A stretch of DNA of 64,000 nt from a virus. Lineage: Duplodnaviria > Caudoviricetes. Positions 61,190-63,773 of the stretch are shown here, piece by piece. The stretch is from the IMG/VR virus record IMGVR_UViG_3300014168_000003, positions 1-64,000 of that record; one strand, 5' to 3'. Under the pieces are notes generated by a model. That model made no database searches, was not told the DNA's origin, and worked only from the letters and a program-made list of their open reading frames with translations. The position numbers and the translations under genes are program-made. Each line of letters opens with the position of its first letter. Position 1 is the stretch's first letter.

Positions 61190-62128
61190 TTAGGAGCGGG
61201 TGATCACGATACGTTCAAGTCCTGATGGGTTGAAGATCAGGAATCCGAGGATCTCGAACACGCTGAATCCGATCTGACGAAGGTCAGGGCGGTCAGCACT
61301 TAGAACGGTCAGGGGGACACGCTCAGGGATGACACCAAGGAACTCGGCATCAGCCATGACCCAGACATCACCGTAATTGACTTTTCTGGACTGCAAGATC
61401 GTTGCGCCCCAGAGATAGCCCATAATACCGGTTTTCAGCAAGTGACGCTGAGTCTCACGGTCGATGTTGTCATCAGTCCACTTCAGGATGTCCACATAAT
61501 CACGAGGATTCATGAAGATGTAGGCGACTGAAAGGTCGTGACGCTGCACCATACCGAAGGCATCTGCGAAGGGATCAACGGCGAGGCCGTAAGGTCCGGA
61601 AGCTGAAGAAACGGTATAGGCAAGGCTCTTGTTGTAGACGTAATCAGTGTATCCGGTCGAAGAAGTAGCGGTGGTGGCTGCTGCGTCAATGGCGAGGAAC
61701 ATATTGAAAACGTGGTTGTCTTCGGCGGCTCCGACTTCGGCCTTCGCCAGATTGAGTGCGCGAGAAACGATGTCGAATCTGCGCTCTTTAATCTGGGTGA
61801 TTGGAATCATGGGGTTAGACACGATTTCAAACGTGGGGACCGTGACACGGATAGGATTGGCAACGTTAACAACGTCTCCACCCTGTTCACCGACCACGAA
61901 CGCCTGCACGAAGCTGCGTCCGGTTTCGTCAAATTCCTTGTCGTAAATCGGGAGGGCTCCATCGGGAAGTGTTTCTACCATCAATGCTTTACGGGCGATT
62001 GACATGTAGTCACGGCGACGACGAAGAGAGGGGCCTAGAGCGGCGGCTAGCTTCTGGCGACCGGCTGCGGTCTTCAGAATCTGACCAAGCTGGGCGGTCT
62101 GTGCTTGGGTGCGGGATAGAATAGTCAT
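61190..62128 (-). CDS. Major capsid protein (HK97-like fold)
   Basis: 312 aa, strongest codon bias in the window, followed by a terminator; V.VPTFEI.S.P.I....IKERRFD...RA...A...EDN..F pattern; lies after a decoration-like gene. Confidence 0.8.
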   Translation of the reverse strand: MTILSRTQAQTAQLGQILKTAAGRQKLAAALGPSLRRRRDYMSIARKALMVETLPDGALPIYDKEFDETGRSFVQAFVVGEQGGDVVNVANPIRVTVPTFEIVSNPMIPITQIKERRFDIVSRALNLAKAEVGAAEDNHVFNMFLAIDAAATTATSSTGYTDYVYNKSLAYTVSSASGPYGLAVDPFADAFGMVQRHDLSVAYIFMNPRDYVDILKWTDDNIDRETQRHLLKTGIMGYLWGATILQSRKVNYGDVWVMADAEFLGVIPERVPLTVLSADRPDLRQIGFSVFEILGFLIFNPSGLERIVITRS

Positions 62129-62143
62129 TGTATTTGTCTCCCT

Positions 62144-62951
62144 TTACAAGAACGAAGCAACGCCAAGCCAGGGCTCGGTGGCAGAGATTGGGTGGGTGCA
62201 GATACCCACGACGATGGATCCGGCAGTGTTTGCGGAACCAGGGGTTGCCGTAAACATTCCAGGACCAACCGAACCACCAACGTTAGCAGTGTAGAGACGC
62301 TGACCGTTGAGGGGGGTGCTGCCTGTCACCTGAGAGGCGGGAACCTTGAACTTGGGGAATGCGCGGACCACAGGGGTCTTGCCAGAACCCGAAGGGGTAA
62401 TGGAAGACGAGAACTGGCCAGCACCCAAGAGCAAGAAGCCGTAGGGGACTTCTGGAGCGGCTCCGGTGAGGGAGGTTGCGCCGTCCAGAGGGTGAACGAT
62501 GAGATTGAGAACGCCAGGGGTAGTGGCCCCATTGTAAAGAATGCTAACGATGGCTCCAGAATTATAGCCAGCAGCAGTCAATGCAGCATTATCAGTCCCA
62601 GGATCACCTGTGAGAGTCAGATTGGGGACGCAAGTTCCGTCATTCTGACCGTAATATTCGCATTTGTTTCACTTGTGGTTTTCAGACCCACTAGGAAATT
62701 TTTCTCTACCACTTCAGTTTTCACTGCCACTACCATTAGTGTTTGTGGTCTGGACTATGCCTTCATCTTGTTGAAATTTCTTCAAGTTAGATGGGTTATT
62801 ATAGTCTCTACACGTTCAAATCTCAGCACCGTATGATTTGCTTCGCTCGGCGTTGGCATCAGGGTTACCTGGAAGCGTTCACCGAATTTAAACCTTACGA
62901 ACGTAATGTTTCCACTGCGCCGACCCGATATATATTAAGTTCGAGATACAT
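62144..62951 (-). CDS. Capsid decoration/cement-like protein, spliced join(62938-62951, 62144-62660), 176 aa
   Basis: The reading frame extends 79 nt upstream of the TTG called at 62581. Joining ATGTATCTCGAACT to CGAATATTAC gives MYLELEYYGQNDG... in frame (531 nt), with an AGGAG RBS before ATG 62951. Confidence 0.8.
62661..62937 (-). ncRNA. Group I self-splicing intron (277 nt, no internal ORF)
   Basis: P element AAATTCGGTGAA, Q CAACGCCGAGCGAAG, R GTAGAGACTA, S AAGGCATAGTCC; P7 GACTA/TAGTC; the 5' exon ends in U and the intron ends in G; P1 and P10 can form. Confidence 0.9.
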
Positions 62952-63087
62952 TCTCTACTCTCCTATATATGATTTTTCGCTTCTCCATGGATCAGCCGAG
63001 GTGGCGAGATCGCTACAAGATGGAGTCGCTTGTGCATATGAGGAAGGGATATTAGCAAAACAAAGTTACTTATATAACGTGGTTTTC

Positions 63088-63095
63088 CAGTATTA
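63088..63095 (+). promoter_or_regulatory. Promoter-like motif CAGTATTA
   Basis: On the plus strand, 15 nt before the only plus-strand gene. Confidence 0.6.
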
Positions 63096-63110
63096 GATAT
63101 AGAGGTTAGA

Positions 63111-63773
63111 ATGACAAGACCACTAGGTATTTACCCATTTCCATATGACACCAGGGCAGGGGTGTACCAAATTGAAAATAAACTGAGTGGAGTCGTATAT
63201 ATTGGCTCTGCCATTAATTTCTATCGAAGATGGAGGAGACATCACAATGAACTCACTAGGGGAGTTCACAGCAATCAGCATCTCCAGAGAGCTTGGGATA
63301 AGTATGGGCCTGACTCGTTTATCTGGACTGTGTTGGAAGAAACCAACTGCACCCGTGAAACACTGCTAAGCCGTGAACAGTACTGGATGGATAGAATAAA
63401 AAAAGAGGGGGTATTACTTTACAATACCTGCGTCACTGCTGGTTCCCATCTAGGTGTAAAACGTTCTGAAAAAACCAGGAAATTAATGTCTGAAATTGCT
63501 AAAAAACGAGGAGATAATGGTATTAGACGAGATGAAGAATGGTGCAGGCAAGTGTCAGAAGCAAATAAGAATAATGTAGAAACTAGATGTGATGCGAAGT
63601 TTAGAGAGAAGATGTCAAAACTAAAGATTGGAAATATGTATTGTAAAGGAAAAAAATGGATCAATAAAAATGGGTGCAGCAAAAGAGTGTCTTTAGAGGA
63701 GCTGCCTCTATTCTTGGAGCAGGGTTGGAAGAAGGGGAGAGCCACTATAGTAATTCTGCCACCTGAGAAGTAA
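63111..63773 (+). CDS. Free-standing GIY-YIG homing endonuclease
   Basis: AGVYQIEN...YIGSA...RRW..H; NUMOD3-like KRSEKTRKLMS; C-terminal KWINKNG...GW.KG shared with the 23248 gene; AT-rich. Confidence 0.92.
   Translation: MTRPLGIYPFPYDTRAGVYQIENKLSGVVYIGSAINFYRRWRRHHNELTRGVHSNQHLQRAWDKYGPDSFIWTVLEETNCTRETLLSREQYWMDRIKKEGVLLYNTCVTAGSHLGVKRSEKTRKLMSEIAKKRGDNGIRRDEEWCRQVSEANKNNVETRCDAKFREKMSKLKIGNMYCKGKKWINKNGCSKRVSLEELPLFLEQGWKKGRATIVILPPEK

Follow-up and report, generated by a model that had tools for sequence, protein, structure and literature searches.

The question raised by this locus is where the gene that precedes the major head protein gene of a soil phage begins, and whether a group I intron separates its start codon from the rest of its reading frame. 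The stretch of DNA analysed here (the window) comprises the first 64,000 nucleotides (nt) of IMG/VR virus record IMGVR_UViG_3300014168_000003, which is 74 kb long and estimated to be 24% complete. The major head protein gene of the window (61190–62128, minus strand; phrog_2522, E 3e-42) displays 68% DNA identity to its counterpart in Tunturi_5, a 309-kb jumbo phage of Tunturiibacter (PMC11924767), and the source is a Tunturi_5-like jumbo phage from soil. On the same strand and 16 nt upstream ends the gene in question, which likely encodes a capsid cement or decoration protein and is called the cement gene below. Its downstream frame is open from 62668 to a stop codon at 62144, and the earliest ATG, GTG or TTG in this frame is the TTG at 62581, the start chosen by open reading frame (ORF) callers. 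Further upstream, an AGGAG Shine-Dalgarno sequence (62960–62964, minus strand), read directly and kept in intron-containing as well as intron-less alleles, stands 8 nt before an ATG (62951–62949, minus strand) whose frame closes after 18 codons at a UAA (62897–62895). An earlier sequence-only reading of this DNA had proposed that the two frames are joined by the splicing of a hidden group I intron, and the AGGAG, the ATG at 62951, the 14-nt exon, the frame from 62660 and the G at 62661 are all as it described them.

The TTG at 62581 is the wrong start, because homology to the N terminus of Tunturi_5 gp333 covers the 26 codons upstream of it (E 2e-32; YGQN[DE]G..LTGDPGTDN), which confirms the earlier suspicion that the TTG-started form lacks the real N terminus. 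This segment includes EYYGQNDG, the most conserved motif of the family, which is invariant in 11 of 11 sequences, and the homology reaches the first codon of the segment that we designate exon 2 (62144–62660, minus strand; 171 codons plus stop), in which the TTG is internal. The gene therefore needs a start that is absent in frame from the DNA, as the intron predicts. Since gene callers start at the internal TTG, the ESM Atlas contains only the truncated form of the protein.

The exon-2 protein was searched against IMG/VR and the JGI metagenomes, which yielded 43 related loci. At nine of them, seven from IMG/VR (L011, L012, L014–L016, L022 and L025) and two from metagenomes (L034 and L035), the gene is uninterrupted and encodes M-Y-L-E-L-E-Y-Y-G-Q-N-D-G directly after an AGGAG-type ribosome-binding site (RBS), so that the relatives hold both the intron-less alleles that the sequence-only reading had suggested looking for and the very product start that it had predicted from splicing. 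Exon 1 (62938–62951, minus strand) consists of the 14 nt ATG TAT CTC GAA CT, and the intron-less alleles read MYLELEYYGQNDG. In L022, the DNA over the insertion site is identical to exon 1 of the window run straight into the opening of exon 2. A BLAST alignment of L022 with the intron-bearing L033 broke exactly after nucleotide 14 of exon 1 and resumed at the first nucleotide of exon 2, leaving 250 nt unmatched. Besides that of the window, four other versions of the intron occupy the same insertion site (L009/L010/L031; L003–L008/L018/L027/L028/L030; L017; L032/L033), and they are 62–97% identical to the window's. Intron-less alleles, the comparison of empty and filled sites, and the covariation described below all agree on an intron after a 14-nt first exon; we hold it very probable that this ORF-less group I intron of 277 nt (62661–62937, minus strand) is real, with boundaries fixed by the natural empty sites.

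A local search with the group I model RF00028 gave an end-to-end match (model positions 1–253 of 253) at 62730–62953 on the minus strand, with 32.1 bits and E 3e-6 (E 6.5e-8 per genome at the same place). The model check proposed by the sequence-only reading thus gave a full-length local match that stays below the gathering threshold (50 bits), at which a search of the whole window returned no match. Of 18 genuine tRNA introns of this class from bacteria that were tested with RF00028, 4 pass the threshold, and they reach only 52–54 bits. Rfam E-value scans of 13 and of 12 loci together overlooked even the near-identical intron of L009, because the filters tighten as the sequence grows, and such scans are uninformative rather than negative evidence.

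The P1–P10 structure, with 72 proposed pairs, was written out on an alignment of the five intron versions, from which it was also derived, and pairs were counted. In total 94.9% of the cells are paired, compared with 27–42% when the partners are slid by 1–3 columns; compensatory changes occur at 25 pairs, compared with 1–5; and the covariation score is 0.365, compared with 0.05–0.10. None of 500 shuffles attained the observed pairing or covariation values. Because the proposed structure came from the same sequences, RNAalifold was run blind, and it again yielded P2, P4, P5, P6/6a, P7, P8 and the P9 junction, now with compensatory changes at 22 pairs. The P2 hairpin (62902–62919, minus strand, as are all elements of the intron) carries a GAAA tetraloop and compensatory changes at 6 of its 7 pairs, and was found independently by RNAalifold. 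The 5' strand of P3 (62894–62891) and the P4-P5-P6 domain (62886–62813) together span 62813–62894, with compensatory changes in P3, P4, P6 and P6a. They are followed by a segment at 62753–62806 that holds P7 (62806–62802/62757–62753), the 3' strand of P3 (62797–62794) and P8 (62793–62764), and on which the RF00028 match, covariation and RNAalifold converge. Pairing across the versions is complete in P3 (three of four pairs compensatory), P5, P6, P7 and P8 and reaches 97% in P4, so that the core helices P3–P8, including the P3/P7 pseudoknot, are supported by covariation.

The 3' part of the intron (62675–62748) forms a P9 three-way junction, with P9a and a P9b arm capped by a GAAA loop, and a P9.1 hairpin (62691–62675), as seen by covariation and RNAalifold. 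The conserved P9 that heads this junction is CCAC/GUGG (62748–62745 with 62712–62709). Of the helices listed by the sequence-only reading, P1, P2 with its GAAA loop, P4, P5, P6, P7, P8 and P10 hold by covariation; its P9, CAGACC/GGTCTG, does not, since even L009, the closest relative with 97% identity in the intron, no longer has it. The intron is ORF-less, as had been stated, in that no ORF within it is conserved among the versions. An antisense 101-aa ORF (62791–63096, plus strand), which runs opposite the 5' half of the intron, exon 1 and the leader, was rejected as spurious; it is unconserved and is broken in the L009 intron.

Could the gene simply have no intron, being either truncated with a genuine TTG start at 62581 or a pseudogene, with a similarity to the group I core that arose by chance? 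Gene callers and the ESM Atlas do present the TTG-started form, and Rfam gives no match at its gathering threshold. Such a reading is extremely improbable, as conservation within the protein is highest in the 26 codons before the TTG, the ATG and RBS before exon 1 are preserved in all five intron lineages, and the covariation and the exact empty-site alleles contradict it.

The internal guide sequence (62920–62928) ties the intron to both exons. Its bases 62925–62920 pair with the end of exon 1 to form P1, in which the last 7 nt of exon 1 are the 5' strand and U62938, the splice-site U, forms a U.G wobble with G62925; the three bases 5' of these, 62928–62926, pair with the first three nucleotides of exon 2 to form P10. 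P1 is 90% paired across the versions. The guide pairing claimed beforehand, with its U-G at the splice site and its P10, is borne out by the alignment, in that the U62938.G62925 wobble is invariant in five of five versions and the first pair of P10 covaries (C-G, U.G or U-A). A terminal G (omega-G; 62661 or its equivalent), which marks the 3' splice site, is present in all versions. From this group I anatomy, guanosine-dependent splicing of the self-splicing type is predicted. The ligated mRNA would encode a protein of 176 amino acids starting MYLELEYYGQNDG, with (M)YLELEYYGQNDG as the predicted N-terminal peptide of the spliced product, and the unspliced RNA would yield nothing but an 18-aa peptide.

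The same intron could be read with a first exon of only 8 nt (ATGTATCT), a junction ATGTATCT-CGAATATT and the protein MYLEYYGQNDG. This exon, too, is in frame and has a U at its end, the terminal G would be shared, and CTCGAA lies near both junction choices, so that the readings differ by exactly two codons. We rejected it as having a negligible chance of being correct. The shorter N terminus is found in no intron-less allele, the near relatives all having M-[YF]-L-E-L-[EQ]-Y-Y. U62944 pairs with the guide in some versions only and fails to do so in L003 and L017, while every version keeps U62938.G62925. Moreover, the covarying P10 register is compatible only with the 14-nt exon, and the L022/L033 alignment breaks after nucleotide 14.

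The 14-nt exon being retained, the architecture of the intron places it among known group I introns. It is compact, without P5abc and without P7.1/7.2, and has invariant GAAA loops on P2 and P9b, features that it shares with the bacterial IC3 tRNA introns (cyanobacterial and other tRNA-Leu(UAA) introns and Azoarcus-type tRNA-Ile(CAU) introns, which have GAAA loops on P2 and P9). Its J6/7-P7 (GUGUAGAGACUA) and J8/7-P7' (GAAGGCAUAGUCCAG) segments match the cores of bacterial tRNA introns near-identically, and by these likenesses the intron is of the compact tRNA-intron, IC3-like class. At least 120 segments of bacterial genomes contain the 16-nt J6/7-P7 motif. A core model of 149 positions (R1), built solely from the five phage versions, scores 40–102 bits over its full length on 71 bacterial introns with the motif. 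Those flanks that were inspected, by eye and through motifs, are the halves of split tRNA-Leu(UAA) and tRNA-Ile(CAU) genes; a T-arm motif lies at most 260 nt downstream in 57 of the 71. ARAGORN left the intron-split tRNAs in these bacterial loci uncalled. The tRNA-Leu and tRNA-Ile introns are classed as IC3 in the literature (PMC3984707, its ref. 38; PMC11835236). The phage intron differs from the bacterial ones in interrupting a protein-coding phage gene rather than an anticodon loop, and in its extra P9 three-way junction and P9.1 hairpin.

In the Azoarcus intron the GAAA tetraloops dock into 11-nt receptors, L2 to P8 and L9 to P5. The canonical receptor CCUAA..UAUGG is present in P8 of L003 and L032, the window having only the variant UCUAA..AAGA. 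In a tree of 130 columns the five phage versions form one clade among the bacterial introns (Shimodaira-Hasegawa-like approximate likelihood ratio test, SH-aLRT, 95), and no bacterial donor lineage is resolved by these 130 columns; an origin from an identifiable host tRNA intron was dropped as a proposal. Introns of this core type split tRNA-Leu(UAA) in many metagenome-assembled genomes of Acidobacteriota (Terriglobales, Acidobacteriaceae, Bryobacteraceae and Pyrinomonadaceae) and also in Proteobacteria and others (L047–L166); these loci were selected through the 16-nt motif, with Acidobacteriota given extra weight in the first model search, and support no claim of enrichment. The R1 model finds one copy in the 74-kb record and one in a 313.6-kb relative that is 100% complete, and no copy in Tunturi_5 or in two partial relatives. 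Matches to the AGAGACTA motif in L014, L023 and L024 proved to be ordinary coding sequence. Elsewhere, matches of about 60 nt (77–84%) to P7'-P9 occur in unannotated DNA of two crAss-like phages (OQ198718.1, 76482–76541; MT774387.1 = NC_055880.1 = cr111_1, 66789–66843) and of a 595-kb uncultured phage (LR756511.1, 409217–409273), which may be related, unannotated group I introns.

How the intron came to sit at this site is indicated by its discordant ancestry. Compared with L009, the intron of the window is 96.8% identical and exon 2 is 79.8% identical at the nucleotide level; compared with L003, the values are 74.4% and 93.8%. Between L003 and L006, the intron is 100% identical and exon 2 92.8%. 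In 100-nt sliding comparisons the window follows L009 at 92–99% from about 63100 to 62612, and past about 62612, over exon 2 and the capsid gene, it follows L003 at 84–100%, for the most part above 90%. Informative sites, together with the sliding and pairwise identities, place a recombination breakpoint at 62648–62654 (minus strand), 7–13 nt into exon 2, with L009-like sequence upstream and L003-like sequence downstream. Between L022 and L033, the insertion site is exactly where identity falls, from 93% to 66%. Breakpoints so placed are the trace that break repair at this site should leave.

A candidate for the enzyme that makes such breaks is encoded next to the intron. A free-standing GIY-YIG homing endonuclease gene (63111–63773, plus strand; 220 aa) lies upstream of exon 1, at a distance of 159 nt and in divergent orientation. 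Its product matches PF01541 (44.5 bits against a cut-off of 22.6), the catalytic domain of I-TevI (1LN0/1MK0, E 9e-17) and a PHROG of homing endonucleases (E 1e-25), and its translation shows GVY..VYIG plus the Arg, His, Glu and Asn positions; a NUMOD3 match in the protein (E 1.5) is not significant. Homologues of this gene, with full-length matches at 36–69% amino acid identity, are found in the same place and orientation in five of five intron lineages. The gene is present in only one intron-less lineage (L011/L012/L025/L034), survives as a 21-aa remnant in L036, and is absent from the remaining intron-less lineages, including Tunturi_5.

These observations, an ORF-less intron with a free-standing endonuclease gene adjoining the interrupted gene in all intron lineages, and horizontal movement with tract ends near the site (7–13 nt into exon 2 in the window, exact in L022/L033), correspond to the arrangement of collaborative homing. 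We read the intron as a mobile one that has moved between related phages and was probably spread by homing in trans. The endonuclease would cut intron-less or endonuclease-less relatives at or near the site in a mixed infection, and repair from the intron-bearing genome would copy the intron in, with or without the endonuclease gene. That an IC3-like intron interrupts the cement gene, with endonuclease-driven homing as the most likely account of its spread, is a reading in which we have high confidence; that this endonuclease targets this particular insertion site is a narrower claim, to which we give only slightly better than even odds.

Several points weigh against this account and were set against it. 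The RF00028 score stays below the curated 50-bit cut-off, P1 requires one bulged A, P10 has just 3 contiguous pairs in the window (5 in L003), the stop codons that the exon-1 frame meets within the intron vary across versions and are unconserved, and splicing itself is something that we infer. For the homing step, the endonuclease gene is only 65–81% identical between the window and L009 and lies outside their near-identical tract, which takes in the intergenic region and the intron (about 63100–62654); it was therefore left behind when intron and leader were last transferred, and the L009-like tract would lend no support to a part of the endonuclease in that transfer. In addition, no target site is readable from comparing intron-less alleles with the endonuclease gene (L011) and without it (such as L014), and both the target of the enzyme and the direction of transfer stay putative.

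The spread of a real intron may instead be independent of the endonuclease, the GIY-YIG gene being a separate selfish element that entered between the cement gene and the scaffold-like gene and has a target of its own, and the intron moving by homologous recombination, reverse splicing or plain inheritance. The contrast between the latest exchange with L009 (92–99% over the intron and intergenic region) and the more diverged endonuclease gene speaks for such independence, as do the lineage that has the endonuclease gene without the intron (L011, L012, L025 and L034) and the absence of a target site inferable from the alleles. We nevertheless judge it unlikely, if a serious contender, since all five intron lineages carry the endonuclease gene and most intron-less lineages lack it, and since the breakpoints, at most 13 nt from the splice site and exact in L022 compared with L033, are as double-strand-break repair would leave them. 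Moreover, activity at the insertion sites of introns is well established for I-TevI-like enzymes (PMC3984707).

Homing in trans, or collaborative homing, is described for two other phage systems (PMC3984707, sections 8 and 12). The psbA intron of cyanophage S-PM2 with F-CphI and the T4 nrdB intron with mobE (PMC3984707, PMC2790892, PMC6083498) resemble the present case in combining an ORF-less intron with an endonuclease gene that lies outside it and adjoins the interrupted gene, in the co-occurrence of intron and endonuclease across lineages, and in recombination signatures at the site. F-CphI is Endo VII-like and mobE is HNH, whereas the enzyme of the window is an I-TevI-like GIY-YIG. The window further differs in that a virion gene is the one interrupted, by an intron of the tRNA type (IC3-like) that lies 14 nt from the start codon, and cleavage is only predicted here.

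I-TevI is encoded inside the td intron of T4, which belongs to subgroup IA2. The td system shares with the present one a homologous catalytic domain and a group I intron in a phage protein gene, and differs from it in that the endonuclease gene of the window lies outside the intron and the intron belongs to another subgroup.

Two further observations concern the endonuclease gene. In L036 (1319–1381) an intron-less allele with a TTG start (MFLELQYYGQNDG) is preceded by the 21-aa remnant of the endonuclease N terminus, on the same strand as the gene, which suggests a decayed or rearranged former endonuclease insert. In the window, the endonuclease gene may be driven by a SAGTAWTA-type motif, unlike the late cement gene, because CAGTATTA, a copy of this promoter-like octamer, sits at 63086–63093 (plus strand), 17 nt (18 positions) before its ATG. 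A 108-aa ORF at 63419–63745 (minus strand) lies wholly antisense within the endonuclease gene and was discarded as spurious.

The 5' leader of the cement gene contains a hairpin (62990–63011, minus strand; GAUC..GCC..GGC..GAUC), detected by eye in all alleles, intron-bearing or not, about 40–60 nt upstream of the ATG and beside a TTGTAG at 63013–63018. Its compensatory variants, also read by eye, affect the outer stem (GAUC/GAUC, GAAC/GUUC, GAGC/GCUC) and the inner one (GCC/GGC, GCCA/UGGC, GUCA/UGAC). The hairpin is probably a 5'-leader stability or processing element, or else part of the late promoter of the cement/capsid operon.

The role of the interrupted gene was approached through the structure of its product, for which Pfam (including the Phage_cement families) and PHROGs gave no match at E 0.01. 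An AlphaFold model from 11 sequences reached a predicted local distance difference test (pLDDT) of 69.5 and a predicted template modelling score (pTM) of 0.70. Foldseek with this model returned weak matches, all with E of at least 0.007, nearly all of them to capsid decoration or head-fibre-base proteins. With VIA-align the top 15 rows were all capsid decoration or cement chains, the best being phiCD508 (Z 8.3, root-mean-square deviation, rmsd, 3.3, 85 aligned) and XM1 (Z 7.4, rmsd 3.0, 108 aligned), and the nearest ESM Atlas clusters are 'phage cement' families (0.95). Judged by these fold matches and by the position before the capsid gene, a capsid cement or decoration role is likely. The intron-less homologue in Tunturi_5, gp333 (L001, 3468–3965), is annotated as 'tail fiber protein', a label that looks doubtful, as fold, Atlas clusters and position would point to capsid cement or decoration.

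The sequence-only reading had called the insertion into a virion gene unusual, which overstates the case: the location is noteworthy and not unprecedented. Group I introns are documented in capsid (LittleE) and tail (BAKA) genes of Cluster J mycobacteriophages and in the capsid gene of Tuc2009 (PMC3706429). Like the window's, these introns interrupt a highly expressed structural gene and were recognised via intron-less relatives, have a U at the end of exon 1 and a G at the end of the intron and, in BAKA, are also ORF-less; they were confirmed by reverse transcription PCR and N-terminal sequencing, whereas splicing in the window is predicted from sequence. The window differs from all three in that a cement/decoration gene is interrupted, almost at its start codon, and in that the phage is a jumbo phage with a single cultured relative, which has an acidobacterium as its host.

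A distant homologue of the cement gene carries a different insertion of about 270 nt, a few bases from the same position (L042, 80–350; L043, 1328–1600; and L045), and L044 has the intron-less form of this homologue, MLKLDYYGQNDG. The insertion shows P3-, P7-, P8- and P9-like pairings (GACUA..UAGUC, CCUCUC/GAGAGG) and has no endonuclease gene within 1.6 kb. Neither RF00028 nor R1 recognised it in L042, L043 or L045, and canonical splice sites, with a U and a terminal G in frame, could not be placed with confidence in these three loci.

It had also been proposed that head-protein output is gated or timed by splicing and that the intron persists for this reason, the output being that of the cement protein and perhaps of the downstream capsid gene too. 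The protein is obtainable from spliced RNA only, and just 16 nt separate the gene from that of the major head protein downstream. Furthermore, the start codon is 7 nt upstream of the exon strand of P1, and because exon 1 is only 14 nt long, the initiating ribosome, judged by the size of its footprint, and P1 should be mutually exclusive. We found the proposal unsupported and consider a gating function very improbable. Close relatives, the cultured Tunturi_5 among them, manage without the intron, no conserved regulatory feature was found within it and its exon-frame stops are unconserved. In addition, the capsid gene is equipped with a start and an RBS region separate from those of the cement gene, and the mosaic ancestry and adjacent endonuclease gene are signatures of a selfish element. 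In its fullest form, our account would comprise an IC3-like ribozyme in a virion gene of jumbo soil phages, a free-standing I-TevI-like enzyme that forms a working homing pair with it, its recognition sequence being roughly the first 30 bases of the cement gene, and splicing before ribosome loading, a combination that we put forward tentatively and at somewhat less than even odds.

Selfish elements of this kind are known, and the intron adds a clean new case to them and involves no new mechanism. It corrects the annotation of a conserved virion gene, since the TTG-started version misses the first 31 residues, including the most conserved motif, and it extends both the IC3-like introns and the arrangement of an ORF-less intron with a free-standing endonuclease to jumbo phages related to a phage of Acidobacteriota. 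The natural alleles, which comprise an empty site, an allele with the endonuclease only and five diverged versions of intron plus endonuclease, offer a ready system for collaborative homing and co-conversion. If the account holds, P1 and translation initiation would compete for the same bases, so that splicing must precede ribosome loading, and the locus would be a natural case of a group I intron that has to fold where translation is initiated on a late gene with very high expression. The locus also allows ribozyme folding to be tested 14 nt from a start codon.

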